A stretch of 16,660 bases of DNA from Leptospiraceae bacterium (GCA_016711485.1 JADJSX010000013.1:214889-231548); one strand, 5' to 3'; positions 1-13,948 are shown, counted from the stretch's first letter. The notes: a model not told the origin generated them from the letters alone. Translations and numbers: made by a program.

Positions 1-367
1 CAAGTTTAAAGAAAATCGAAAGAATATTTTATTTCTAAGTAAAAAACAACTGCAAGAAATTGAGGATCGAATAGCATTCTTAATCCATGCGACTAAAAAT
101 TTAAATCTCTTCAATGTATCGCTTACGGATATTCGTTGTATTGCGTATGGTTGGATTTTGGATGTGCCCGTTGTCACGGAAGATAAAGATATGACTAAAT
201 TGGCAAATGAATTTGAAATAAAAATTATTAAAACTTTAGATCTTATTAAACTAATGTATCATGCCAAATATGTATCAAAACAAAAATTATTAGAATTAAA
301 AAAATATTTAAAGTCAATAAATGAATATCCTAAATCATACGATATTTTTTTTAATTCAATTCAGTGA
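1..367 (+). CDS. 3' end of a gene continuing upstream of the window. The C-terminal region resembles a PIN-domain nuclease: the motif VVTEDKD matches the C-terminal T-x-D acidic motif of PIN/VapC.
   Basis: Frame 2 is open from base 2 to the TGA at 365-367, with no in-frame ATG before the ORF-track TTG at 158. The sequence ...SLTDIRCIAYGWILDVPVVTEDKDMTKL... is PIN-like. The stop lies 12 bp before the start of the next gene, suggesting an operon. Confidence 0.45.
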   Translation, partial: KFKENRKNILFLSKKQLQEIEDRIAFLIHATKNLNLFNVSLTDIRCIAYGWILDVPVVTEDKDMTKLANEFEIKIIKTLDLIKLMYHAKYVSKQKLLELKKYLKSINEYPKSYDIFFNSIQ

Positions 368-1191
368 GGAATCCCAAACATGTCCATTACCTTTTATAAA
401 ACTCACGAAAAACAACTTGAGAAAATTCTACAAGACTATAAAAAGAAAATTTCCAAATCGGATAACGAACTATTTACCGATCCATCCATTTCTCATTTTA
501 AAAGATTTGAAACTGAATTATTTAAACACAAACTTCGCCCTTACCAAATGGAAGCGCTGTATATTCTAGATGCTCTCTACACTCAAAGTAAATCCGATAA
601 GGATATAAAGAAACTCTATGAAAAACTTTTAGAGTCACACGGAAAAGAAAATCCAGTTAAGATTCCTTTTATTGGCTATGAAATGGCAACCGGATCAGGC
701 AAGACAACGCTAATGGGGGCATGTATCTGTTATCTGCTAGAGCAAGGAATTAAAAACTTTCTAATCATTACACCAAAGTCCTTGGACATATACAATAAAA
801 CAATTCGCAATTTCACAAAAGGGGGAGCTGATTCTATTTGGGATAGAGAAGCGCCTGTTAAGTTTAATCTAATAACAGGAGATGATTACAACCATTTACA
901 ATTTAATTCTGATAAGGACTTTAATTTATTTATTTTCAACATTGACAAATTCGGTCCCAATGCAAACAAAACATCGAAAGAGTGGGAGAGTTCTTACTTC
1001 AAAGATAAGAACGGAAATACGATCAGCGTAAAAGAATTTTTAGAAAATGAAGACCTTGCTATTATAACGGATGAAGCTCATCACTCACAAAGTCAGAGTG
1101 CTGGTGGTTCGGGAAATATTAGAGTTGTTGCAAAATTAGAAATATCCTAAAAAAAGCTTGTACAAAAACAATCGAGTTATTTATTTTCTGT

Positions 1192-1563
1192 ATGAAGAAT
1201 ATAGAAAAGATATTAAAAAAGAAACGACTTTGTCAGGCATTGACAGGAGTATCGCCTGAAAAAATTTATGAAAGTCTTCCCTATTTTGAAATTGAATTAG
1301 AAAAACATGACAAGAAAGAAAAGAAATCATCGAAAGGAAGAAAAACTGAACTAACAAATTCGTTAGAGAAATTATTTTTCATTCTATACTATGTAAAATG
1401 CTATCCCACATTCGATGAAGCAGGCTTTTTCTTTGGCGTCGATAAAGGAACAGCAAATCGGTGGGTTCATAAGTATTCGAAAATACTAGAGTCTACTTTA
1501 AAAACAATGATGCTATTACCCGCACGAAAGCCTAAAAAGATTACTGATAAATTGAAAAGATGA
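1192..1563 (+). CDS. IS transposase OrfA (N-terminal HTH part of a DDE_Tnp_4 transposase).
   Basis: 123-aa ORF. The motif ...LFFILYYVKCYPTFDEAGFFFGVDKGTANRWVHKY... is typical of the N-terminal region of IS5/Harbinger-type transposases. It ends at a TGA overlapping the -1-frame start of the catalytic part. Confidence 0.7.
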   Translation: MKNIEKILKKKRLCQALTGVSPEKIYESLPYFEIELEKHDKKEKKSSKGRKTELTNSLEKLFFILYYVKCYPTFDEAGFFFGVDKGTANRWVHKYSKILESTLKTMMLLPARKPKKITDKLKR

Positions 1564-2195
1564 AAGAAAATAATGAAGAAATTTTTATTGATGGAACTGA
1601 AAGACCCAGAAGAAGACCGAAAAATAAGGATATTCAAAAAGAAAACTATTCAGGAAAAAAGAAACGGCATACAGTTAAAAATTTAGTTATTACAAATCGA
1701 AAAAAAGAAATCTTATATACCCTTCGCCAAAAGTAATTTCCCTTTTTGTAAAAAATAGGGTATTCCCAAACGCCAAAAATAAGACTCTTTTAAAAACGAA
1801 TGGGTAATTACTTTTGGCGTTTGGTATATTTATCTAACACAGTGCAAGGCTCAATGCATGATTTCGTATTGATGAAAGAAACACTAGTCAAAAATTATCT
1901 TCCGTCCGAAATGAAAGTTTATGTCGATACTGGATTTCTAGGCTTCCAAAAACTAAGTCCTGATCTAAATATCTTTATGCCTAAAAAGAAACCTAAATCT
2001 AGAACTCTTTTTCAATACGAAAAAAAACAGAATAGAAAGATTTCAAAACTTAGAATTCTCGTTGAACATGCAATAGGCGGCATAAAGAGACTTCGCGGAG
2101 TCACTGATGTATTTAGAAACATCAAAAAAGGATTTTCAGATTTAATCATGAATATATGCTGCGGATTATGGAATTTAAACTTGAAAAAATTTTAG
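1560..2195 (+). pseudogene. IS transposase OrfB (DDE catalytic domain, -1 frame relative to OrfA), disrupted by a MITE insertion that introduces a stop at 1735-1737.
   Basis: Frame 1560+3k reads MKENNEEIFIDGTERPRRRPKNKDIQKENYSGKKKRHTVKNLVITNRKKEILYT, then a stop inside the inserted element. The same frame resumes as VYLSNTVQGSMHDFVLMKETL...YVDTGF...ILVEHAIGGIKRLRGVTDVFRN, giving the DDE triad (D in IDGTE, D in YVDTGF, E in VEHAIGGIK) and the family signature SGKKKRHT. Confidence 0.7.
1717..1828. mobile_element. MITE-like ~110-bp non-autonomous element (copy A) nested inside the IS transposase gene.
   Basis: Imperfect ~26-bp terminal inverted repeats: left 1715-1740 TATACCCTTCGCCAAAAGTAATTTCC, and the reverse complement of the right end 1803-1829 ATATACCAAACGCCAAAAGTAATTACC. 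An internal third copy of the repeat core (1761-1785 TATTCCCAAACGCCAAAAATAAG) forms a perfect 13-bp hairpin with the right end. It is flanked by a TA/TAT duplication (TATATA / TATAT). Removing 111 bp restores an uninterrupted transposase (…EILY-LSNTVQGSMHDF…) that matches DDE_Tnp_4 spacing. Confidence 0.6.
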
Positions 2196-4711
2196 ACTAA
2201 CATAAAATCGAATTTTGCAACAACTCTATTATAAAAAACTTTCATCCCAAAGTAGTATTGGAATTTACCGCAACTGCTTTAGAAGATACAAAGTCAGACG
2301 AGAAACGTGCTCAAAAGGTCGTTTATAAGTATGATATCAGAAAATTCTTAGAACAAAAATATGGAAAACGAATAAAAGCAGTTGCACTGGATACCGAATC
2401 CATTAAACGAACAAAGAAAACGGAAATTCCTGACTCAGAAAAATGGAAGCTAATTACATTATACCTCTTTCATATTCTAAAAAAGAAAGCCTTACTTTTA
2501 TCAGAGAGCACAAAAAATTTAAAACCATTGGCTCTAATCAAAGTAAAAGATGATTCGATTTATGCAAAAAAAATCTATGACTATATTATAAATGAACTCC
2601 CAAATGATGAATCCAATATAAAAATCATATTAGAGAAAATTAAGACAGAAGAAATAGATGTTGTTCCTACTCTTAAAGCTGTTCTAGAAGATTTATTTCA
2701 ATTCGATCTAACCAAAATTAAAAAAGAATTAGAACGATTGATTGTGGCAAAAACTTTACTTTATTCAGGAGATTTGGACAAAGAACAAAAAGAGGGATTC
2801 CTAAAAATCCAAACTAACTTATACGAAAGCATTGTTTTTATTAAACGTCTAGACGAAGGAATTGATTTACCGAATATTTACACCATTGCTGTTATCAACG
2901 ACAATGAATCAGACTTTAAAACTTCGGTTAAGCAGATTATTGGTCGCGGCGTTCGACTGCCAAAGTTAACAAGAGAATATGATGAGGAACACGATTTATT
3001 ACAAGCTCAATCAGAAATTCTACATATAATATGCGATAGAGGCAAGAATTTTGAAAAAATCATCGAGGACATTAAGGCTGAATTTGATTTGAATGAATTT
3101 TTATTTTCTAACAATTCTAAGCATAAAGTCACAATAACCAACATTGTAAAAAAACATTTACTGAAAGATAAAAAAATTCCAATCATTAAAGCATCTGATA
3201 AAATAAAGAAAGATGTAACATTAGACGGACTCATGTCAGATACGGATGCAATCGTGAACTCATATATTCAACATAATTGCACGCCAAATCCTGATAAGTC
3301 GAGAGTTTACTTAAAATTTGCCCCTACTTCTTTTTTCACAATTATAGATATTTTCTCTGATGATTTCACTTTCTTAAAGGCAATGGAAGAAAAAGGAATA
3401 CCGTCCGAAAAATTTCAAATCAATGAGGATGATTATAAGGAGATTTATACAAGGATTGTAAAAAAAGTTCCTCATATACCAGATAGTGCGAAATACAAAG
3501 ATTATTTTAAAAAATACATTGATCATCTAGTTCAAAAAGATTTTTATTTTTTTAAATCAGACGACGCGGATAAAGAAATTGCTAAAAGGAAATTCAAAGA
3601 TTCATTTTGTTATTTTTTTGATAACTATATTCACAAACATTATTACCAACCAGATTATAAACAAATTCATGAAGACCAATATTTAGAATTGGAAGATATT
3701 TTTAAAGATGTAGAAATTTCTATTCAGCAAGATGCGATAGGATCTAAACAAAAGAAAAAATTAGAAACCTTAGTTCATGATTTTGCAAAAATGGCAGAAC
3801 TAGTCAAACAAGGTCATTATTTTAATGGATATAAATACTCTTTATATGATTACACAAGATTTGATTCTTATACAGAAAAACAATTAGCGGATTACTTGGA
3901 GGAACTGATTGGAAAATTAGAAAATCCAGAACAATATTTTTGGGTAAAAAGTGAACGGCAGTTTAGTTTTCAATATGGTAACCAAAGATACTTTCCGGAT
4001 TTTTTATTTCATTATTCTGATATGATGAATATTATCGAGACGAAAGCAGAGCCGTTTTCAAATCAAAAGAAAAATGCACTGTTAGAAAAAGTAAATGAAA
4101 TAGATGGGTATCGCGGAATTTTAATTTACTCTGATAAAATGGATGATATCCAAAAACAAAATAATGATGTTCCTTTTGAAGATTTACTTGGAGTTTCGAA
4201 GCAGTCATTCAAATATGAAAAATATAAAAATCATCTTATCTATAGTATAGAAGAGAATTTAAAGTTCACTGAATTTTTACCTTTCTATTCCGTGAAAGCA
4301 GCCGCAGGTGCGTTTAGTGAATCGCAAGAAGCTAATCCTGAAGGATGGCTTCCAGTAAAAAAAGGCAAATATTCCAAAACATCTTTTGTGATTCAGGTCA
4401 AAGGTCATTCAATGAGTCCAAACATTTTCGATGGAGATCTTTGTATTTTTGACAATCATTTCGTTGGTTCAAAAAATGAAAAAACCGTATTGGTGCAACA
4501 TAGAGACATTTTTGATCCAGATAACGGAGGAAAATATACCGTTAAGCGTTACTACAGTAAGAAAATTCAATCAGAAGAAGAATTGATTGGAAACTATAGA
4601 ATAGAATTAAAACCAACTAATTCTAATTACAAATCTATTATTCTTGAAAAAGCATTAGAGGCTGAAATTAAATTTATAGGAGTCTTTGTAGATACAGTAG
4701 CATTACCTCAA

Positions 4712-4737
4712 GCCGAATAAAGATTCGGCATTTTTTT
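4712..4737 (+). terminator. Rho-independent terminator of the helicase-nuclease-peptidase gene.
   Basis: Stem GCCGAAT (4712-4718), loop AAAG, stem ATTCGGC (4723-4729), followed by a T7 run (4731-4737). The stop codon TAA lies inside the stem-loop. Confidence 0.55.
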
Positions 4738-4841
4738 CTTTTTCATGGAATTGTACAAAAAATTGTAAATTTAATTCAATTAGTAAATTATTTTTATTTT
4801 TTTTATTTGTAATTCATCTTCCATGTAAAAATAATTATCTC

Positions 4842-5933
4842 ATGAACTCCAAACCCACCGGCATCTCTACTCCAACATACAACTCCATCCTAAAAGACAT
4901 CTCCCTCATTTACGAAAACGCACAAAGTGAAGGTGATGGAAATTGGAACAAAACAAATCTATTCGCTCACTGGAAAATCGGAGAAAGGATAATCGAAGTC
5001 GAACAAGGGCAAAAAGAAAGAGCGGCTTACGGGGATATGGTGCTAAAGCAACTTTCAAAAGATTTGAACAGAAAGTTTGGAAAAGGATTTTCAGATAGAA
5101 ACTTGCGGTATATGAGAAAGTTCTATCAGACCTACAAAATGAAAGAAGTGCAATCAGTTCTATCGTGGAGTCATTATCGGGAATTGTTACTTGTGGATGA
5201 TTCTTCGGTGAGAATAAAGCTAGAAAACCAAGCGATTCGGGAACGGTGGTCACAACTAGAATTACAAAAACGGGTTAAATTAGCTATAGCCGGTAAAGGC
5301 GAAAAAACAGAGTCAGAAAAGCAAGATGAGCCAATAAAAGACAGTTTGAAACGACCATTGATGAGGCTCTATTTATACCGCACTTTACGAAAATTTTCGT
5401 CAGATTTGGAACAGTCTGTTCCAAATCTGGATCTAGGTTTTTCGATTCGTTTAAAGGTTAATAGATATTATGCGTTTTTATCTTCAAATGGGAGTGATTT
5501 GAATAAACTCAAAGTCGGTTCGGTGATTGAGTCACGGAAGAAAGGTAATTCGTATTATTTTGAGTCTATTTCTAGCAGCAAAGAGATGTTTACCTACAAA
5601 GCTTATTTGGAGAGAGTTATTGACGGAGATACTTTGCTTGTTACTATTGATTTGGGTTTTTCGGTTTTCATTGAGCAAAGGTTGCGGCTGCGTGGATTAA
5701 ACGCTCCTGAGCTTGGGACAAGTAAAGGTAACGCGACGAAGAAATTTGTAGAGTCTCGTTTAATGGATTGTGATTTTTTGATTATTAAAACTCACGGAGC
5801 TGACAAATACGATCGTTATTTGGTGGATGTATTTTATTTGGGGGGTGTGGATAATGAGGATAAGGTTTTACGAGATGGGACTTTTTTGAATAATGAGTTG
5901 TTGGAAGAAGGATTGGTTGGCTTTGTGACCTAA
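4842..5933 (+). CDS. Fusion protein: a DUF1016_N (YhcG-like N-terminal) domain joined to a staphylococcal-nuclease (SNase/thermonuclease)-like domain.
   Basis: N-terminal region ...ERAAYGDMVLKQLSKDLNRKFGKGFSDRNLRYMRKFYQTY... matches the DUF1016 N-terminal consensus. C-terminal region ~5617-5930, VIDGDTLLV...RLRLRGLNAPELGT...KYDRYLVDVFYLGG, matches SNase motifs (V.DGDT, RL.GIDAPE, D.YGR). Confidence 0.75.
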   Translation: MNSKPTGISTPTYNSILKDISLIYENAQSEGDGNWNKTNLFAHWKIGERIIEVEQGQKERAAYGDMVLKQLSKDLNRKFGKGFSDRNLRYMRKFYQTYKMKEVQSVLSWSHYRELLLVDDSSVRIKLENQAIRERWSQLELQKRVKLAIAGKGEKTESEKQDEPIKDSLKRPLMRLYLYRTLRKFSSDLEQSVPNLDLGFSIRLKVNRYYAFLSSNGSDLNKLKVGSVIESRKKGNSYYFESISSSKEMFTYKAYLERVIDGDTLLVTIDLGFSVFIEQRLRLRGLNAPELGTSKGNATKKFVESRLMDCDFLIIKTHGADKYDRYLVDVFYLGGVDNEDKVLRDGTFLNNELLEEGLVGFVT

Positions 5934-5971
5934 CCCCAATTTTTTATTACTTGGTTTACTTTTACAATGAA

Positions 5972-6034
5972 GCCCCTTCCCTAATCCTATTTTTGTATCT
6001 CCTGCTGTTAAATAGAGAGCTTCAGGGAAGGGGC
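5972..6034. repeat. GC-rich inverted repeat or hairpin (11-bp stem GCCCCTTCCCT / AGGGAAGGGGC, 41-nt loop) downstream of the DUF1016-SNase gene.
   Basis: 5972-5982 is the exact reverse complement of 6024-6034. There is no following U-run, so it is not a canonical intrinsic terminator. Confidence 0.5.
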
Positions 6035-6148
6035 AACTTGTGAGTATTCTATTGGAGTAAAAAACTAGAACTAAGAAAAGGTCTTAATGGAGCATTGCGA
6101 AGTGTTAAAGAGAAAAAGTCTGAGCTGCGGGTTTTCTTTTCTTTTTTG

Positions 6149-6195
6149 CTTACTTTTTTCTTTTCTTTTTCATAAAAGAAAAGAAAAAAGTAAGA
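6149..6195. repeat. Perfect ~21-bp polypyrimidine/polypurine inverted repeat (hairpin) with a 5-nt loop.
   Basis: CTTACTTTTTTCTTTTCTTTT (6149-6169), loop TCATA, AAAAGAAAAGAAAAAAGTAAG (6175-6195). Confidence 0.6.
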
Positions 6196-6268
6196 ATCCC
6201 CCCACGGGAGTGGAGATAATAAAGATCTCCCCCACTGGGCAGCGGTAATAAAAAATAATCTCCCTCTG
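6195..6268. repeat. Imperfect tandem direct repeats with C5-6 cores (AATCCCCCCACGGGAGTGGAGATAATAAAG / ATCTCCCCCACTGGGCAGCGGTAATAAAAAAT / AATCTCCCTCTGAG...).
   Basis: Two or three adjacent units of ~30 bp share ATCTCCCCCAC-GGG followed by an A-rich tail. The C/G-rich cores stand out in an AT-rich genome. Confidence 0.45.
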
Positions 6269-6312
6269 AGAAAAGAAAGTCCGACAACGACGACGCGTTA
6301 GGGATCGAACGA

Positions 6313-6348
6313 TGTCATCTTTTTTTATCTTTTTGAAAAAAGATGACA
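6313..6348. repeat. 13-bp inverted repeat or hairpin (TGTCATCTTTTTT / AAAAAAGATGACA) with a 10-nt loop.
   Basis: 6313-6325 is the reverse complement of 6336-6348. Confidence 0.5.
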
Positions 6349-6503
6349 ATAGTGAGAGCCCGGCGCATTTAACGAAAGAATAAATCAAAATAAAAATTAG
6401 TTAAGCTAAAACTTTAAATGCGCAACGCCCCAAAAAAAGTAATAAATTCAAGGTTTCTAATTACCACCGGAAACAAGGATATTAAAATCTCTTTCCACTA
6501 AAA

Positions 6504-6533
6504 TTCTACTTGCTTGTAAACAAATCTTACAAT
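6504..6533 (+). promoter_or_regulatory. Weak candidate sigma70-type promoter for cstA (-35 TTCTAC, 18-nt spacer, -10 TACAAT).
   Basis: TACAAT at 6528-6533 lies 13 nt upstream of ATG 6546. No SD is visible, so the transcript would have a very short leader or be leaderless. This call is speculative. Confidence 0.2.
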
Positions 6534-6545
6534 GCTTAGTAAAGC

Positions 6546-8399
6546 ATGCTTCCGATGATCATTGTTTTAGTCTGTCTTATTACCTATTTTTTTGGATATC
6601 GTTTTTACTCTCGCTACTTAGCCGAAAAAGTTTTTGGGCTTAGGGATAAAGAATTTATTACCCCAGCACATAAACACAATGACGGTGTGGACTATGTTCC
6701 GACTAAACCAAACGTTCTATTTGGTCATCATTTCGCGTCTATCGCTGGGCTTGCTCCAATTTTGGGACCTGCAGTAGCTGTAATTTGGGGTTGGCTTCCT
6801 GCAATGGTTTGGGTTGTATTGGGTGGAGTATTCATGGGTTGTGTACATGACTTTGGCGCACTCATTGTTTCCGTTCGCCACGATGCAAAATCAATTGGTC
6901 AAGTGGCTGAAGATTTACTCGGACATAGAGCACGTTCTTTATTTCATATCATTATTTTCTTTTTAGTTTCTCTCGCTATGGGAGTGTTTGTATTAGTCAT
7001 TGCCGGACTTTATTCAGCTCCACCAAAACCTATTGAAATAAAATCTCCGACTGTATTAGAGCAACCCGTTACAGTAAAGGAAGTAAAAGAAGGACACGAC
7101 AGCGGAGATTTGCAAAAAAAGGAACCTACAAAAATCCAACTTAGAAGTAATTTTCCAGAATCAGTAACTCCAACTTTAGTATTGATGCTTTTAGCGGTTA
7201 TCGTTGGTTACCTCCACTATAAAAAATCTTATCCTCTTGGTCCACTCACTGTTCTCAGTTTTTTTATTACCCTTTTTGTAATCTACTTTAGTATGGATGA
7301 AAGTTTTCTCGGTTTTATCGGTTTAAATGATATAGATAGGGCACCTTCGACTGATGCTTGGAAATTAATTTTGCTGGCCTATGCATTTTTAGCTTCTGTA
7401 ACACCAGTCTGGTTATTATTACAAAGTAGAGATTATATAAATTCATTCTTGCTCTATTTGGGGATAATCCTAATTTATCTCGGTTACTTTATAGGAAGTA
7501 TCAATGGAAATTTTCCGAGTTTTAACGCGGCTCCCCTTCGAACTGAGGAAATCGGAATGGATATTCTACCATTTGTATTTATTACAATCGCTTGCGGTGC
7601 CATTTCTGGATTTCATGCACTCGTAAGCTCTGGAACTACAGCCAAACAAATCAATGTAGAAAAAGATGCACGGGTCATTGGGTATGGCGGAATGATTGGC
7701 GAGTCTCTTCTTGGGCTAACAGCCGTTATCGCCTGCACAATTGGATTTTCTTCCATGGAAGAATGGAATTCTTATTATAAATCTTGGTCTGGTTTACAAG
7801 GATTAAACGTTCAAGTTGGAGCATACATCTATGGAACAAGTCGTTTTTTAGGTCAACTTGGAATTCCAGAAAAATTTGGACAAGGATTTATCGCACTAAT
7901 TGTAATCAGTTTTGCACTCACATCTTTAGATTCAGCGACCCGACTCCTTAGATACAACATCGAAGAAATCGTTCATTCTATTGGTTCAAAACCCCTCAAT
8001 CTACTACTTGCAAATCGTTACTCATCTAGCATTCTAGCTTGTGCTTCCATTGCATTCTTTGCATTTCTCAAAATAAATGTAAATGGACAAATGAAACCAG
8101 CAGGGCTTGCACTCTGGAAAGTATTCGGAACTACAAACCAACTACTTGCCGGTTTATCATTGTTAGTCGTATTTATTTATTTATTAAAATCCAAAAAACC
8201 AACGATCAATATATTCATTCCAATGATATTTGTATTACTTGTTACCCTGTGGGCAATGGTTGGAAACTTTTTAGAATTTGTGTCTGGAGCTACACCAAAT
8301 TATCTGCTTGCTTGCGTGGGTGGAATATTAATAGTACTGACAGTTTGGCTTTTGGTAGAAGGAATATTAGTTTGGAAAAAAATAAAAAAAGTCAATTAA
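6546..8399 (+). CDS. cstA: Carbon starvation protein A (CstA family peptide/pyruvate transporter).
   Basis: 617-aa polytopic membrane protein. The N-terminal ...[16 protein letters not shown]... and overall hydrophobic architecture with a central loop match CstA. Internal overlapping ORFs (7592..7780, 8039..8407) are spurious. Confidence 0.9.
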
Positions 8400-8727
8400 A
8401 ATCCTGAATCGCACTCCCTTCCGAATCATAGAGTTTAAAACTTAAGTCTAGCTTAGTTAGGGCAAACAAACGTTTTACTTCATCACTTAAATCAGCAAAT
8501 TTAATAGAGATACCTTTCTGTTGGCATTCAAAAAATAGATTCGTCAGAAATCCTAAACCAGAAGAATCAATAAAATGAACTTTTTTAAGATTAAATAAAA
8601 TTTTAGAATTTTCACTACGAGTAAGTATTTTACAGAATTTTTTTAATTCAGGTACAGAATACAAATCCATGGAATTCTCTATACTTACTATATTTACACC
8701 ACCAATAATTCTATGTGAAAAAGCCAT
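8392..8727 (-). CDS. STAS-domain anti-sigma factor antagonist (SpoIIAA/RsbV-like), paralog 1.
   Basis: 111 aa carrying the ...[16 protein letters not shown]... hallmark (phosphorylatable Ser in DSSGLG). An SD AAGAGGA lies 8 nt upstream of the start on the - strand. The 3' end overlaps the cstA 3' end by 8 bp, and the two genes are convergent. Confidence 0.85.
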
Positions 8728-8867
8728 TTTCTGTATCCTCTTACATTAACCTTCAAATAATACTTAATATTACTGATTCTATTTACCCGTTGCATAGGAT
8801 CTTATACCATTTCGACTTATTTGAGATGGTTAGATACTATTCTTTTTGAAATGATATAAACATTTTG

Positions 8868-9206
8868 TTAAGTTCGAAATGAATAAATTGCATCTTGAAT
8901 TGATTCATAAAATGCATAATTCTGAGATAATTTTGTAACAGCAAAAACTCTCTTTGCCTCTTTACTTAAACTCGCTAGTTTAATTTCAATTCCTTTCTGT
9001 TTACATTCAAAAAATAGATTCACGACCATACCAAGTCCCGATGAGTCTACAAATGTAACATTTTCCATGGAGATAATGATCTTACTATTAACCGACTTTA
9101 GCAATGATTTTGCAAATTTTTTTATTAACGGTGTAGAATATAAATCAATAGAACCTTCCAGACTAAGTATATCGACTCCGTTTTCTTCTCTATGAACATA
9201 ACTCAT
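8868..9206 (-). CDS. STAS-domain anti-sigma factor antagonist (SpoIIAA/RsbV-like), paralog 2.
   Basis: 112 aa carrying ...VTFVDSSGLGMVVNLF.... It is about 45% identical to paralog 1. An SD GGGAGA lies upstream of the start. Confidence 0.85.
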   Translation of the reverse strand: MSYVHREENGVDILSLEGSIDLYSTPLIKKFAKSLLKSVNSKIIISMENVTFVDSSGLGMVVNLFFECKQKGIEIKLASLSKEAKRVFAVTKLSQNYAFYESIQDAIYSFRT

Positions 9207-9464
9207 TTAATTATTTATCTCCCATATCAATTAGGTCAATATTTTTCTTACTAAGATTATTTGTATAGCTTCATTTTCTACTTAATTTTTGTAACTTCTT
9301 TTGTTGACCACAGAGGCTCAGAGGCACGGTTTTTTTTGGAATTATGTCATTTTTAAGCGCATGAATCACTCGAATGAGAAGTGATGAAAAATTTTGATCC
9401 TGCTGCTCAGATTTCTAATTCTAAACAATGCTTTCTGCCAAACACTACTCCCTATAAACCCGTA

Positions 9465-9574
9465 TATACCCAACGTCAAAAGAATTTTCCTTTTATTAAA
9501 AGATGGATATTCCCAATTGCCGAATAAAAGGTTCATTTAAAATGAATAGGTAATTACTTTTGGCAATTGGTATA
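9465..9574. mobile_element. Second, diverged copy (copy B) of the MITE-like element, in the divergent intergenic region between the STAS genes and the kinase gene.
   Basis: The ~110-bp sequence aligns along its full length with 1717-1828 at roughly 75% identity. It has the same three-repeat architecture: left terminal repeat TATACCCAACGTCAAAAGAATTTTCC, an internal copy ATTCCCAATTGCCGAATAAAAGG, and a right terminal repeat GGTAATTACTTTTGGCAATTGGTATA. It is flanked by TA. Confidence 0.6.
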
Positions 9575-9810
9575 AACAATTATTTTTTGTGTTAGAAATT
9601 TTATTGGAAATTGCTAAACTCAATGTATTTTACCATTCGTCTAAGAAATACAAAAAAAATGCTTAAAAACATAAATTTACTCGTTCATTGGATTTTTACT
9701 TGCATTTCTTTATTGTATTCCCCAATGTACTGAAGTCAGGAGATTTGTGATTAGAAAAGGATTATTTTTTAGTTTCAGAAGTAGAAAACTCCCAGCTTTT
9801 CAATTTAAAG

Positions 9811-11115
9811 ATGCAGAATTATCCAACTAGCGAATCAAAAATTTTACTAGATAAACCACAAATTTTAATTGTGGATGACGATCGTAAAACTTTTGAATTA
9901 TTCAAAATCGCACTGGAAAATAAATACGAACTTACCTTTTGTTCAAACGAATTAGAAATATTTGAACAAATTAATTTTCCTTTTTCCGCAGCCATTATAA
10001 ACATAAAGTTGGAAACCAAAAATGAATTCAAAACCATTCAAGAAATTAAAAATAAAAACATAAATATTCCTATTATTTTTCATTCAGACTATAAAGACTC
10101 AATCAATACAATCATAATTAAAAATGAATATAAACCGTTCGCATACGTTATAAAAGAAGAAAACTTTAACAAACTCCTCGACACCTTAGAAAGTGCAGTG
10201 CAATACTTTCAACAAATCAATCAAAATTTAGTTTTGGCTCAGACGTTAGACAAGTTAGAACATAACTATAGAGACTTAGTAGAGAACTCTCCCGATATTA
10301 TTTTTTCACTAGATGAGAATTGGAGACTAATTTCAATTAATGAATCAGTAACACAAATTTTACGTTATCCGGTAAAGGAAATATTAAATAAAACAATATT
10401 GAACCTAGAATTTAAATTAAATAACCCAACAAGTGGAATTTTAGAAAAAAAATTACAAGAACTTACATTATCCCAAAATACTATCTCATTCAATTGTGAT
10501 TTGGTTACCAAATTTGGAGAACCAAAAGAGATGCATTTAAAGTTACGATATGTAAATCAGAAAAATGGACACACTTTTTTTGGTACTGCCACAACAAATG
10601 AAGAAGATATACTATTGCGTATCTGTGAATCCGAATCACAGATTTATAAATTAGGAAATTATTTAACTCATGTAGATATTATTACACAGAGATTAGCAAA
10701 TTATTCTTCAAAGTATTGTACGCCAGAAATTCTTATGAACCTAAAACTATGTATTAGAGAGTTAATCATTAATGCAATGGAACACGGAAATTTAGGAATT
10801 AGTTTTGAAGAAAAATCCGAATCTCTCATGAATGGAACATACATTGAACTACTCATCAAAAGACAAAGAAACAAAACACATGCCGACAAACAAATTACGG
10901 TCGAATACTCATTAACCCCAAAAAGGATAGAAGTAAAAATCACTGATGAAGGAGAGGGATTTGATCATCAAAAAATGTTATCTAGATCAATTAACCAATT
11001 AGATGATAATATCCTCGGTCACGGTCGCGGAATTGCCTTAGTAAAAAATTATATAGACTCAATAGTTTACAATGAAAAAGGAAATTCTGTACATATAATA
11101 AAGAATTTTATTTAA
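9811..11115 (+). CDS. Three-domain regulator: N-terminal receiver-like domain lacking the phospho-acceptor Asp (pseudo-receiver), a PAS domain, and a C-terminal HATPase_c anti-sigma-factor-type serine kinase (RsbW/SpoIIAB/RsbT-like).
   Basis: The receiver-like region has ILIVDDD...AAIINIKLE (Asn where the conserved Asp is expected), ...IIFHSDY...YKPF. The PAS-like region is SPDIIFSLDENWRLISINESVTQILRYP. HATPase_c motifs: ELIINAMEHGN (N-box), ITDEGEGFD (G1), GHGRGIALV (G2). Confidence 0.75.
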   Translation: MQNYPTSESKILLDKPQILIVDDDRKTFELFKIALENKYELTFCSNELEIFEQINFPFSAAIINIKLETKNEFKTIQEIKNKNINIPIIFHSDYKDSINTIIIKNEYKPFAYVIKEENFNKLLDTLESAVQYFQQINQNLVLAQTLDKLEHNYRDLVENSPDIIFSLDENWRLISINESVTQILRYPVKEILNKTILNLEFKLNNPTSGILEKKLQELTLSQNTISFNCDLVTKFGEPKEMHLKLRYVNQKNGHTFFGTATTNEEDILLRICESESQIYKLGNYLTHVDIITQRLANYSSKYCTPEILMNLKLCIRELIINAMEHGNLGISFEEKSESLMNGTYIELLIKRQRNKTHADKQITVEYSLTPKRIEVKITDEGEGFDHQKMLSRSINQLDDNILGHGRGIALVKNYIDSIVYNEKGNSVHIIKNFI

Positions 11116-11119
11116 TTCA

Positions 11120-11150
11120 CTCACCTTACGCACAAGCGCGTTGAGGTGAG
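11120..11150 (+). terminator. GC-rich compound hairpin immediately after the kinase gene stop. It may be a terminator or a structured RNA. There is no U-run.
   Basis: CTCACCTT-ACGC-acaagc-GCGT-t-GAGGTGAG gives a ~12-bp stem. It sits inside an unusually GC-rich ~100-bp patch (11118-11215) of an AT-rich genome. Confidence 0.35.
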
Positions 11151-11422
11151 AGATTGGGCAATCGGCGACACTTCAACGATCGCTCAGTGTATCGCTTGGG
11201 CTGCCGCCCAAACCTGCTTATTCATTAGCTTTATCTAATATTCTTAACTTTGCTTTAAATTTCATAATTTTTCTTTTTTGCGTAACGTCAGTTAATTCAG
11301 TTCAAATCATTATTTCTTCAAAAAAATTTAGCTTTTTACTTTTAAGTATTGAATCAATGAATACAAATCCGCTTGACTAGATGTATCACTCAATCAAAAT
11401 TAGAGTGGGCTGAATAAATTAT

Positions 11423-13948
11423 ATGAAATACTTACTTTATTTCCTGACATTCCTTCTATTATTTCAATGCAAAATAGTCGGTAAAAACAATACAATTCCT
11501 TTAAATGGAGAATGGAAATATAGAAATGGATTCGATATTGATTGGCTTTCAAATCCCGGCAGTGACAAAAAATGGAAAAGTATTTCCCTTCCGACAAATC
11601 TATCGAAAGAACTAAATCTGGAAGGATATACTGGGTATATTACACTCAGAAGAGAACTTCCTAAATCATTAAACACATATTTACTAAATGGAAAACCACT
11701 TGCTATCAATGCAGGAAGAGTTCTAGATGTTTCTTACTTTTATTTTAATAAAACTCTAATTGGTCAATTAGGATCTTCTTCACCGTATCAAGCGGGAGCG
11801 ATGAGACCTTTTTTAAAAGATATTCCATTTAATGACATACAGACAAATGATAAAAATTCTATTACCATTGTTCTTTACACAAATACTAAATATCCGCTTC
11901 AATTCATGGACACGATTGAAATTGGAGAATCAGATACAATTTATTCCTCCTATACCAAAAAGGAAATTTATTCATTTTTCTTTTTAACCATTTACCTCAT
12001 AGTAGGATTGTATCATATTTTACTTGCCAGCAAACGAAAGAAAGATTTGTACAATCTCTATTTTGGATTATTTAGTGTATTTGCATCAATCTACTGGTTT
12101 ATAGCAAATACGTTGTCTAGAGACGCAGTTTTTCAAGATTATGTTGACCTTCAGAGAAAACTAGAACACGTTTTTCTATTTACCCTTAGCCCTACTCTAC
12201 TTTTATTTTTAGTACAGTTCTTTGAAAAAAAATACAACCGTATATCGAAAGGATTAGCAGGATTTTGCGCTACGATTATTGTTTTGACAATTCTACTCCC
12301 ACTTCCGGTCATGAGAGTTAGTACAATGTTATGGCAATTGTCAACTTTATTCATTGGACCGTATATGGTCTATTATTTGCTAAAACAAATCAAACAAGGA
12401 AATAAAGAAGGAATCTACTTAATTGTTGGACTTTCTATATTTGTATTAGGTGGGCTATTGGATATGGCGACATCACGGGATTATATCCATTTACCTCAAC
12501 TTTCTAATTTTACATTTTTGATATTTGTAATGGGAATTGCAACAATCATGGCAAATCGATTTATGGCAATCACAAATGAAGTTGAAACTCTTAACTTAGA
12601 ATTAGAAAAAAAAGTAGAGGATAGAACAAAAAAACTTTCCGAAAGTTTAGACCAAGTGCAAATTCTAAAAGAAAAACAAGACGGTGATTATTATTTAACA
12701 TCCCTTTTAGTAAAACCACTTTCTGGTAATTTCATTCAAGGCAAAGAAACAGATATTAAAGCAGAAACCCTTATTCGTCAAAAAAAACAATTTCAATTTA
12801 AAAAGAAAAATAGTGAAATCGGCGGAGATATTTGTATCATCGATGAAATCGAATTGGCAAATGTCACTTACACCGTATTTCTGAATGCAGATGCAATGGG
12901 AAAATCAATTCAAGGCGCAGGCGGATGCCTTGTATTGGGAACTGTATTCAAATCTATTTTACAAAGAAATCACTCTTTATCGCATACTCGTAGAAATCCC
13001 CCGGAGTTATGGATGAAAGAATCATTCCGAGAATTACAGAATGTATTTGTATCATTTAACGGTTCCATGCTTATTTCAGCAATGTTCGGTATTATAGATA
13101 ATCGAAATGGAATCATTTATTATATTAACGCCGAACATCCATTTACCGCACTGTATAGACATGGAAAAGCAAGTTTTATGGACGCTGAAACATTTAGAAG
13201 AAAAATTGGAATTGATGTAAAATACAATCCATTAAGAATCCACATTTTCCAACTAAAACCGGGAGATAGTGTGATAGCGGGCTCGGACGGAAGAGACGAC
13301 CTTTTAATTGGAGAAAGTAAAGAAGGTGAAAGAATAATTAACGAAGATGAGAACTTATTTTTAAAAATTCTCGAAGAGGCAAAGGGAGATTTGTCGACGA
13401 TTGAATCACTCCTTCAGTCAAAAGGAGAATTAACAGACGATTTATCTCTATTAAAAATTACCTATGATAAAAAACCAAAACCTACAACAAAAGTTGACCA
13501 AAAAGAAATCCAAAGAATAATGAAAGAGGCTTATTCTTATTATCTGAAAGGCGATAAAACTATCGCAATAACTAAGTATGAAAAAATATTTCAATTAGCA
13601 AATGACGTAGGACTAATAGAAGAAATTGCAAATCTATTTATTGAAAAAAAAGACTATTCATTTTCCAGTCAAATTTTAGACAAATATCTAATAGAAAATC
13701 CAGTAAATTCGAATATGCTTTACATCGCATCCTTCATTAAGAAAAAAAATAGAGAATACAAAGAAGCTGCAATTTTAGGAGAGAGATACAGACTGAGAGA
13801 ACCGCGCAATATAAAAAATCTAGTGAACTTGGCAGATACATACAGATACTTAAATAAAATTGAAAAAACACGAAAGTTTATTAACCGTGCCCTACAATTA
13901 GATCCTCAAAATAGACACGCTTTAAAACTTAAAGAAATTTTAGTATGA
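11423..13948 (+). CDS. Sensor PP2C-type serine phosphatase (RsbU/SpoIIE-like): N-terminal 7TMR-DISM extracellular domain, 7-TM region, PP2C-SIG phosphatase domain, and C-terminal TPR repeats.
   Basis: Signal-like N-terminus. GEWKYRNGFDIDWLSNPGSDKKWKSISLP matches 7TMR-DISMED2. Multiple TM helices lie between 11990 and 12560, followed by a coiled coil. PP2C motifs: DGDYYL, GGDICIID, NADAMGKSIQGAGG, SDGRDD. The C-terminal TPR-like region is YYLKGDKTIAITKYEKIFQLAND...ALQLDPQN. Confidence 0.85.
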   Translation: MKYLLYFLTFLLLFQCKIVGKNNTIPLNGEWKYRNGFDIDWLSNPGSDKKWKSISLPTNLSKELNLEGYTGYITLRRELPKSLNTYLLNGKPLAINAGRVLDVSYFYFNKTLIGQLGSSSPYQAGAMRPFLKDIPFNDIQTNDKNSITIVLYTNTKYPLQFMDTIEIGESDTIYSSYTKKEIYSFFFLTIYLIVGLYHILLASKRKKDLYNLYFGLFSVFASIYWFIANTLSRDAVFQDYVDLQRKLEHVFLFTLSPTLLLFLVQFFEKKYNRISKGLAGFCATIIVLTILLPLPVMRVSTMLWQLSTLFIGPYMVYYLLKQIKQGNKEGIYLIVGLSIFVLGGLLDMATSRDYIHLPQLSNFTFLIFVMGIATIMANRFMAITNEVETLNLELEKKVEDRTKKLSESLDQVQILKEKQDGDYYLTSLLVKPLSGNFIQGKETDIKAETLIRQKKQFQFKKKNSEIGGDICIIDEIELANVTYTVFLNADAMGKSIQGAGGCLVLGTVFKSILQRNHSLSHTRRNPPELWMKESFRELQNVFVSFNGSMLISAMFGIIDNRNGIIYYINAEHPFTALYRHGKASFMDAETFRRKIGIDVKYNPLRIHIFQLKPGDSVIAGSDGRDDLLIGESKEGERIINEDENLFLKILEEAKGDLSTIESLLQSKGELTDDLSLLKITYDKKPKPTTKVDQKEIQRIMKEAYSYYLKGDKTIAITKYEKIFQLANDVGLIEEIANLFIEKKDYSFSSQILDKYLIENPVNSNMLYIASFIKKKNREYKEAAILGERYRLREPRNIKNLVNLADTYRYLNKIEKTRKFINRALQLDPQNRHALKLKEILV

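Follow-up and report, generated by a model that had tools for sequence, protein, structure and literature searches.

The first 5933 nucleotides of a 16,660-nucleotide stretch of DNA from a Leptospiraceae bacterium (GCA_016711485.1 JADJSX010000013.1:214889-231548; the whole stretch is hereafter called the window) are, with a probability of roughly 80%, the downstream end of a defence island, composite and in part decayed, that holds pieces of three independent modules. The modules are of known kinds, namely a restriction operon of the UvrD-Cas4/Mod/Res class, a RosmerTA-like toxin-antitoxin (TA) pair and a stand-alone DUF1016_N-SNase gene, and what lies side by side here is a broken Type III-like res, part of the toxin gene of a nested TA pair and an independent nuclease gene. 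A preliminary description of this DNA had proposed a compact three-gene nuclease cluster resembling a defence island that had attracted mobile DNA. The island and its mobile DNA are supported by our analysis, and the dedicated cluster is not. Of the two outcomes that the description had named as speaking against such a cluster, a housekeeping gene upstream and homologues that never co-localise, only the second was observed: the upstream gene has no housekeeping role, and the three homologues form a trio nowhere else.

On the + strand, positions 1-5933 contain five features: an open reading frame (ORF) that enters from the window edge and stops at 367 (gene 1), a second ORF at 380-1150, a group of three short ORFs with transposase domains, an ORF of 820 codons ending at 4720, and one of 363 codons at 4842-5933 (gene 3). 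Because deletion of 1122-2231, which comprises an insertion sequence (IS) and one copy of its target-site duplication (TSD), joins the second and fourth features in a stop-free frame of 1076 codons, they are a single gene split by the IS (gene 2, or res). The three consecutive same-strand genes first described are present as three same-strand coding regions, of which gene 2 is interrupted and gene 1 is represented by 121 of its 182 codons. Two further details of that description hold: the gene 1 stop codon (365-367) lies 12 nt 5' of the gene 2 ATG (380), with AGGA at 367-370, and gene 2 ends in a clean intrinsic terminator (Table 1).

Res and its operon

When restored, the 1076-residue Res protein matches the Pfam families ResIII (7.6e-20) and Peptidase_S24 (9.8e-13), carries a Walker A motif (EMATGSGKT) and a DEAH motif (in TDEAHH), and is 79% identical over its full length to its closest relative, the product of an intact orthologue (P0001). 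The family is large, with proteins of ~1070 residues in Spirochaetota, Bacteroidota, Nitrospirota and others, and an 820-residue fragment identical to that of the window (100%) is annotated in a Leptospiraceae metagenome-assembled genome. The nuclease signature P836-D837...E850-x-K852 is invariant in 22/22 and 50/50 aligned relatives, and in a PDB search with the family profile the same part of the protein aligned to T7 endonuclease I (3cae, E=0.0047). We also searched an AlphaFold2 (AF2) model of residues 780-1076, with a predicted local distance difference test score (pLDDT) of 92, using Foldseek; its nuclease part matched Bax1, VRR_NUC, RecU, Hjc and Cas4, and the top 18 matches of its S24 part were LexA, lambda cI and UmuD'. 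These fold matches, together with the invariant PD..ExK residues and the Pfam S24 match, bear out the PD-(D/E)xK nuclease and S24 domain proposed earlier within a Res-like helicase. The protein combines an N-terminal superfamily 2 (SF2) helicase-like ATPase and a C-terminal PD-(D/E)xK nuclease in one polypeptide, as expected of a Type III Res subunit. Against curated Type III Res models it scored poorly, NCBIfam BPTD_3080 giving 27 bits (cutoff 800), and a tblastn comparison with Helicobacter pylori loci (presumed Res) gave 23-25% identity in the helicase region only. For the region as a whole, an identification as MADS was set aside on a PADLOC mad8 match of 17 bits over 35 residues.

We surveyed the operon by scanning one genome per species, without the source genome itself, and by searching the flanks of the Res matches with the operon proteins, which yielded 26 close loci in several phyla, the best Res match being 81% identical. 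A same-strand Mod gene lies upstream of Res in 25 of the 26, the exception being a 1.7-kb contig, and a UvrD-PDDEXK gene is found in 23; Mod adjoins Res within a few bases in 19 of the 25 Mod-bearing loci. The intact orthologous locus (L002) has the order UvrD-PDDEXK_1 (927 aa), N6_N4_Mtase (683 aa), HTH_3+M78 (375 aa), a 185-aa protein and Res, and its Mod matches PADLOC MTase_III at 6e-92. The phmmer matches of Mod split around residues ~275-420, indicating a variable central region. A distant clade of Res (~28% identical) has neither the S24-like tail nor, in most cases, UvrD, and is still arranged as Mod-Res. The association of UvrD-Cas4 with a Type III Mod and Res was described computationally in 2017 and read as a defence system (Hudaiberdiev et al., PMC5704561). 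Judged by its domains and by the neighbours of its orthologues, gene 2 is the Res subunit of a Type III-like restriction-modification (R-M) operon of this class. By analogy with Type III enzymes, the Mod-Res complex would recognise unmethylated asymmetric sites, move along DNA at the expense of ATP and cut foreign DNA, and the UvrD-Cas4 helicase-nuclease would probably process DNA ends.

For the source strain itself, two short contigs of other assemblies (L082 and L083) overlap window positions 1-1241 and 1-1172 at 99.9-100% identity, and the first of them gives the upstream order as Mod C-terminus, HTH+M78 (377 aa), the 182-aa gene and res. Both contigs show irregular frames. The mod frame breaks ~230 codons before its end (L082:1-240), which may be a real frameshift or a low-coverage assembly error, and in L083:760-1891 gene calling divides HTH and M78 between two ORFs, again through either a real frameshift or an assembly error.

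The PIN-fold gene and its partner

The AF2 model of the gene 1 protein (pLDDT 87) retrieved PIN proteins only among the PDB matches listed by Foldseek (HARP RNase P, VapC, FitB, Nob1 and Nmd4). In its family D9 (in IDTN), E44, D104 and T120-x-D122 were scored as invariant, and over 60 sequences this holds for D9, E44 and D104, with D122 kept in at least 90%. The protein has the Rossmann-like PIN fold and the four conserved acidic residues of a PIN nuclease. Gene 1 itself has no Pfam, NCBIfam or PADLOC match; among 60 sampled relatives, 10 match Pfam PIN_5, 9 PIN and 3 DUF4411. The PIN-like character proposed at the outset is confirmed by the conserved acidic residues, the model and the relatives that match PIN_5 or PIN, and DUF4411 was set aside as an identity for gene 1, its model being touched by 3 of the 60. 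An exhaustive profile search found 516 cluster representatives of the gene 1 family, nearly all of ~185-200 aa, and yet this PIN family has no Pfam model of its own.

The PIN-like gene is always preceded by a gene of ~380 aa encoding a helix-turn-helix (HTH) protein, with or without a recognisable M78 domain, and this includes loci without Res (L085-87). The two genes overlap or adjoin, with the HTH-M78 gene 5', in L002, L082, L085 and L086, and the pair is inherited together, at 38-41% identity, in unrelated contexts, its two members diverging in parallel to about 39-40%. The partner in L002 matches Pfam HTH_3 (5.5e-7) and Peptidase_M78 (4.1e-7), and that of the source strain, seen in L082, matches PADLOC RmrA (1.6e-10). 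Because of the HTH-M78 partner, the RmrA match and the PIN fold, we read gene 1 as the toxin part of a RosmerTA-like pair between mod and res. From sequence the HTH+M78 (ImmA/IrrE-type) protein is the predicted antitoxin and the 182-aa PIN protein the predicted toxin of this nested pair. ImmA-type antitoxins paired with PIN-like toxins have been noted before (PMC10440598).

A separate occurrence of the pair was seen in Neiella marina (L085:1-16558), where the HTH(+M78-like)/PIN-like genes are the first cargo pair of a Tn7-like element (TnsB, TnsC, TnsD, TnsE). They are followed by a Type I R-M system that is interrupted by a DEAD-helicase/phosphoribosyltransferase gene and a DprA-like/LDcluster4 gene.

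The DUF1016_N-SNase gene

Gene 3 matches Pfam DUF1016_N at 5.7e-31 and SNase at 4.2e-4 (21.2 bits against a cutoff of 21), in agreement with the fusion recognised earlier. Its match to PADLOC PDC-S02 (2.3e-37) is limited to residues ~10-150, and the protein has no match to YhcG_C, its C-terminal part being SNase. The DUF1016_N-SNase architecture recurs in more than 100 homologues, mostly in Leptospira, Leptospiraceae and Omnitrophota, and the SNase catalytic positions DGD, R, E and R do not vary within the family. An exact-sequence look-up of gene 3 returned nothing, and a PDB sequence search with it gave no matches. At residue 287 (window 5700-5702) the window copy reads GLNAPE, and all 27 aligned relatives have Asp in place of this Asn (G-L/I-D-x-x-E). 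We take this to be the position of the metal-ligand Asp in staphylococcal nuclease, and N287 may weaken the SNase of the window copy.

The preliminary description left gene 3 either separate or an accessory of the other two genes, and our results favour a separate gene, which lies behind a terminator, has varied neighbours and is absent near other Res loci. It starts 121 bp 3' of res with the terminator in between. Promoter-like sites are no commoner than in shuffled sequence, and no promoter is claimed for gene 3. A 77%-identical copy (L088-91) stands beside GmrSD_N/AAA/NERD-helicase genes with no Mod or Res, an 84%-identical copy (L092) is separated by 1.5 kb from a UvrD-Cas4/YhcG/Mtase operon that is divergent to it, and in a member of the Leptonemataceae (L006) an SNase-only relative adjoins Res; in the remaining ~40 loci no DUF1016_N was found within 10 kb of Res. 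We read gene 3 as a separately transcribed, independent resident of the defence island and a Leptospiraceae-rich variant of DUF1016/YhcG, a family of candidate defence genes.

The best surviving alternative, which we nevertheless consider unlikely, makes the DUF1016_N-SNase protein a lineage-specific accessory or effector of UvrD-Cas4/Mod/Res in Leptospirales. It would account for the short distance from res in the window, for the copy near the L092 operon, which has a second DUF1016 protein (with YhcG_C) inside it, and for the SNase-only relative in L006. However, the side and orientation differ from case to case, the L088-91 copy has no such operon at hand, and gene 3 is absent from the closest intact orthologous locus (L002, where the neighbour is an SRAP gene), from L023 and L034, and from all loci outside Leptospirales. 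The L092 locus has in its own right a canonical DUF1016_N+YhcG_C gene between UvrD-Cas4 and the methyltransferase (L092:1191-5037), with an Ntox47-domain gene and the DUF1016_N-SNase gene just past that operon.

Insertions in res

The preliminary description had recognised an IS and a miniature inverted-repeat transposable element (MITE) in this region; both are present, and the IS lies inside gene 2. Its ends are perfect 16-bp terminal inverted repeats (1122-1137 and 2211-2226), and these, the TSD and the DDE transposase identify it as an IS with a DDE_Tnp_4 transposase (IS5-like). It splits res into 380-1121 and 2232-4720. With the insertion after codon 247, the Res enzyme is inactive in the window strain, which has only a pseudogene of res. 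The frame is otherwise undamaged, and the insertion is therefore taken to be recent. The IS junction occurs in contigs of three independent assemblies (L082, L083, a third with the left junction and one with the right junction).

Removal of the MITE from within the IS restores a continuous transposase ORF2. A second MITE copy, ~75-80% identical and flanked by TATA, is found at about 9466-9571, between the STAS genes and the receiver-PAS-HATPase gene described below.

Cargo of the operon and its likely function

Between Mod and Res, 6 of the 25 Mod-bearing loci have 0.7-3.4 kb of additional DNA, with different content in each: the HTH-M78/PIN pair, DarT and Macro, a nucleotidyltransferase and Cap15, GmrSD_N and AAA_15/DUF3696, a HEPN-looking ORF and a transposase-like ORF (these two ORFs being assigned by inspection and not by Pfam). 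Five of the six filled slots are in Spirochaetota. The uvrD-mod junction is filled in two loci, by MntA and HepT in L018 and by a classical PIN gene in the other. In the UvrD-Cas4/Mod/Res operon, then, the junction of mod and res repeatedly takes up abortive-infection modules as cargo, among them a RosmerTA-like pair, DarTG, an NTase-Cap15 pair like those of CBASS (cyclic oligonucleotide-based antiphage signalling system) and GmrSD/AAA, and it is a handy place to look for new defence modules.

This content bears on whether the UvrD/methylase/helicase-nuclease operon might instead be a DNA repair or epigenetic-regulation module, with its S24 domain linking it as a repair factor to the SOS response. 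UvrD and domains of the LexA/UmuD type are well-known parts of repair and SOS pathways, and Res resembles bona fide Type III Res only weakly, but we regard this as very unlikely given the patchy distribution of the operon across distant phyla, the variable central region of Mod, the repeated embedding of TA, abortive-infection and CBASS-type cargo, and the IS inactivation and defence-island setting, which fit a mobile defence system, as PMC5704561 concurs. Least credible is the suggestion that genes 1 and 2 form one two-gene system with gene 3 as an accessory, in a dedicated three-nuclease cluster: despite the shared strand, the 12-bp spacer and a nuclease fold in all three products, it is largely refuted by the neighbourhood analysis, in which the PIN-like gene stands beside Res in no more than 2 distinct loci, those of the window strain and of L002-4, and keeps its HTH(+M78) partner where Res is missing (L085-87), Res has Mod and UvrD as its partners and in most loci directly adjoins Mod, and gene 3, behind its terminator, is not in the other loci.

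Several observations weigh against the composite island that we favour. The similarity of Res to classical Type III Res models is slight (PADLOC REase_III E=0.0015, 15 bits), and the PDB search with its family profile found HsdR and T7 endonuclease I only, with no match to EcoP15I. No PADLOC RmrT model matches the PIN-like 182-aa protein. The upstream contigs of the source strain stop within Mod, and UvrD and the Mod N-terminus were not recovered from them. Of ~7 loci in Leptospirales, 3 (the window, L092 and L006, the last with an SNase-only ORF) have an SNase relative next to the operon, and restriction activity, toxicity and self-cleavage are all inferred for members of these families. Most of the locus is unremarkable: an R-M operon, a TA pair and a nuclease encoded by one gene lie packed together, eroded by an IS and a MITE, and the S24 domain is the one feature that is less ordinary.

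The S24 domain of Res

The S24 domain at the end of Res has, in the window, the Ser-Lys dyad, the Ala-Gly site and the fold of a LexA C-terminal domain. We surveyed the 120 best Res relatives for the dyad (G-x-S-M-x-P and T-V/L/I-K) and found it kept in only 11, ~90% having neither the Ser nor the Lys motif. Seven of the 11 also match AA(A/C)G or GACG at the LexA cleavage position, and the other four, all of them tandem forms, have no match to the site pattern. Five are single-domain proteins, among them the window clade, and those that could be placed belong to Spirochaetota. The remaining six (P0005, P0006, P0008, P0009, P0010 and P0015; for example L008:9980-13696) are proteins of ~1230 aa in which a dead S24-like domain without Ser or Lys is followed by a live one with an intact dyad; only P0005 (AACG) and P0010 (GACG) match the site pattern. 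The Ala-Gly site is also gone in dyad-less relatives among the aligned sequences (22-sequence alignment).

With the Ser-Lys motifs missing from ~90% of the family, the general role of the S24 domain must be non-catalytic, and it is perhaps dimerisation next to the nuclease. In the window clade, LexA-type self-cleavage that detaches the last ~136 residues is plausible because the dyad and the Ala-Gly site are kept. Proteolysis may have been selected for in some lineages, since Ser, Lys and the Ala-Gly site are kept or lost together and since some relatives add a live S24 domain behind a dead one. It is possible, if doubtful, that S24 makes Res a self-cleaving restriction enzyme in which a cut between AAA and G frees the C-terminal ~136 residues, the catalytically dead majority being scaffold only. 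Its trigger could be a DNA-damage signal, a RecA-filament signal or simply a dimer contact, and cleavage could switch the nuclease either off, as a built-in restriction alleviation that would protect the host chromosome during SOS, or on. If true, this would connect restriction with proteolytic switching of the SOS type, in a way that can be tested, in a minority of a widespread Res family. We found no paper on S24 fused to restriction or helicase proteins, or on Peptidase_S24 with ResIII, in the open-access literature, which is not proof of novelty, and a PDB sequence search with the S24 region gave no matches.

Coordinates and surroundings

Table 1. Positions of the features discussed, in window coordinates or, where a locus label precedes them, in those of that locus
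Feature	Position	Strand	Basis or remark
Gene 1, last 121 of 182 codons; PIN-fold protein, predicted toxin	2-367	+	N-terminus and partner upstream of window
res 5' part, codons 1-247 and 1 nt; ResIII SF2 helicase N-lobe	380-1121	+	Pfam, motifs
5-bp TSD of IS, TATTA	left copy 1117-1121, right copy 2227-2231	.	Read from sequence
IS element, 1105 bp including MITE	1122-2226	+	HTH_Tnp_4 and DDE_Tnp_4 ORFs, inserted inside res
IS ORF1 (HTH_Tnp_4)	1192-1563	+	Pfam
IS ORF2 (DDE_Tnp_4)	1560-1718 and 1830-2195	+	Interrupted by MITE
MITE, 106 bp, inside IS ORF2	1719-1824	.	Inverted repeat; TSD TATAT 1714-1718 and 1825-1829
res 3' part, codons 248-1076 and stop; helicase C-lobe, linker region, PD-(D/E)xK, LexA-like S24	2232-4720	+	
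PD-(D/E)xK catalytic core YFPDF...IETKAE (P836, D837, E850, K852)	3995-4045	+	Alignment, structure
Peptidase S24 (LexA/UmuD-like) domain of Res	4280-4690	+	Pfam 9.8e-13, Foldseek
AAAG cleavage-site motif of Res S24	4298-4309	+	Motif survey
Nucleophile Ser of Res S24, in GHSMSP	4409-4411	+	
General-base Lys of Res S24, in TVKRY	4544-4546	+	
Intrinsic terminator of res, GC-rich hairpin GCCGAAT-AAAG-ATTCGGC then ATTTTTTT	4712-4729	+	7-bp stem, then T7
Gene 3, DUF1016_N (aa 20-146) and SNase (aa ~246-358)	4842-5933	+	Pfam, PADLOC
Filled operon junctions	L005:8326-9997; L007:8509-9991; L034:6519-9996; L018:7486-8141; L023:9605-9997; L049:9235-9903		

The defence island ends near 6000. From 6546 on the window contains ordinary genes for CstA, two STAS proteins, a receiver-PAS-HATPase protein and a 7TMR-DISM-SpoIIE phosphatase. 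The last of these has TPR repeats and, with the two STAS proteins and the receiver-PAS-HATPase_c_2 protein, makes up a partner-switching signalling cluster at 8392-13948, which is presumably ordinary for Leptospiraceae. The 600-bp intergenic stretch before cstA (5934-6545) has a perfect 21-nt hairpin (6149-6169/6174-6194) and a 26-nt imperfect inverted repeat (5972-5997/6009-6034) with no Rfam match; Rfam and tRNA scans of the window were empty.

Comparison with known systems

The restriction operon shares with the systems of PMC5704561 the order UvrD-PDDEXK_1/Cas4, Type III Mod and Res, a Res composed of an N-terminal SF2 ResIII motor and a C-terminal PD-(D/E)xK nuclease, and the presence of extra regulatory or defence genes in some loci. 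It differs in the extra C-terminal S24-fold domain of the window-type Res, of which we found no mention in that paper, and in that the S24 catalytic residues are intact in the window clade and the window res is broken by an IS. Unlike the Res of classical Type III systems, this Res scores poorly on their Res models.

The predicted TA pair resembles RosmerTA (PMC10440598) as an overlapping two-gene module with an HTH + ImmA/IrrE (M78) zinc-peptidase antitoxin-like protein and a toxin that is variable, PIN-like partners of ImmA antitoxins being among those already noted. In contrast, the toxin here belongs to a ~185-aa PIN family without a Pfam, NCBIfam or PADLOC model of its own, and the HTH-M78/PIN module is nested inside an R-M operon, its toxicity and role in defence being predicted only.

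Gene 3 is similar to DUF1016/YhcG (PDC-S02) in its strong N-terminal DUF1016_N domain and as a single-gene unit in defence islands, and differs from it in having SNase in place of the C-terminal PDDEXK (YhcG_C); compared with its own SNase relatives, it carries Asn at the position of the Asp that they conserve in the D-A-P-E motif. The S24 domain of Res has the same fold as LexA, UmuD and lambda cI (Foldseek prob 1.0, 21-26% identity), with the nucleophile motif G-x-S-M-x-P, the general base in T-V-K and, in the place of the Ala84-Gly85 site of LexA, the stretch AAAG, and it differs in being fused C-terminally to a 940-residue helicase-nuclease rather than to a DNA-binding domain.

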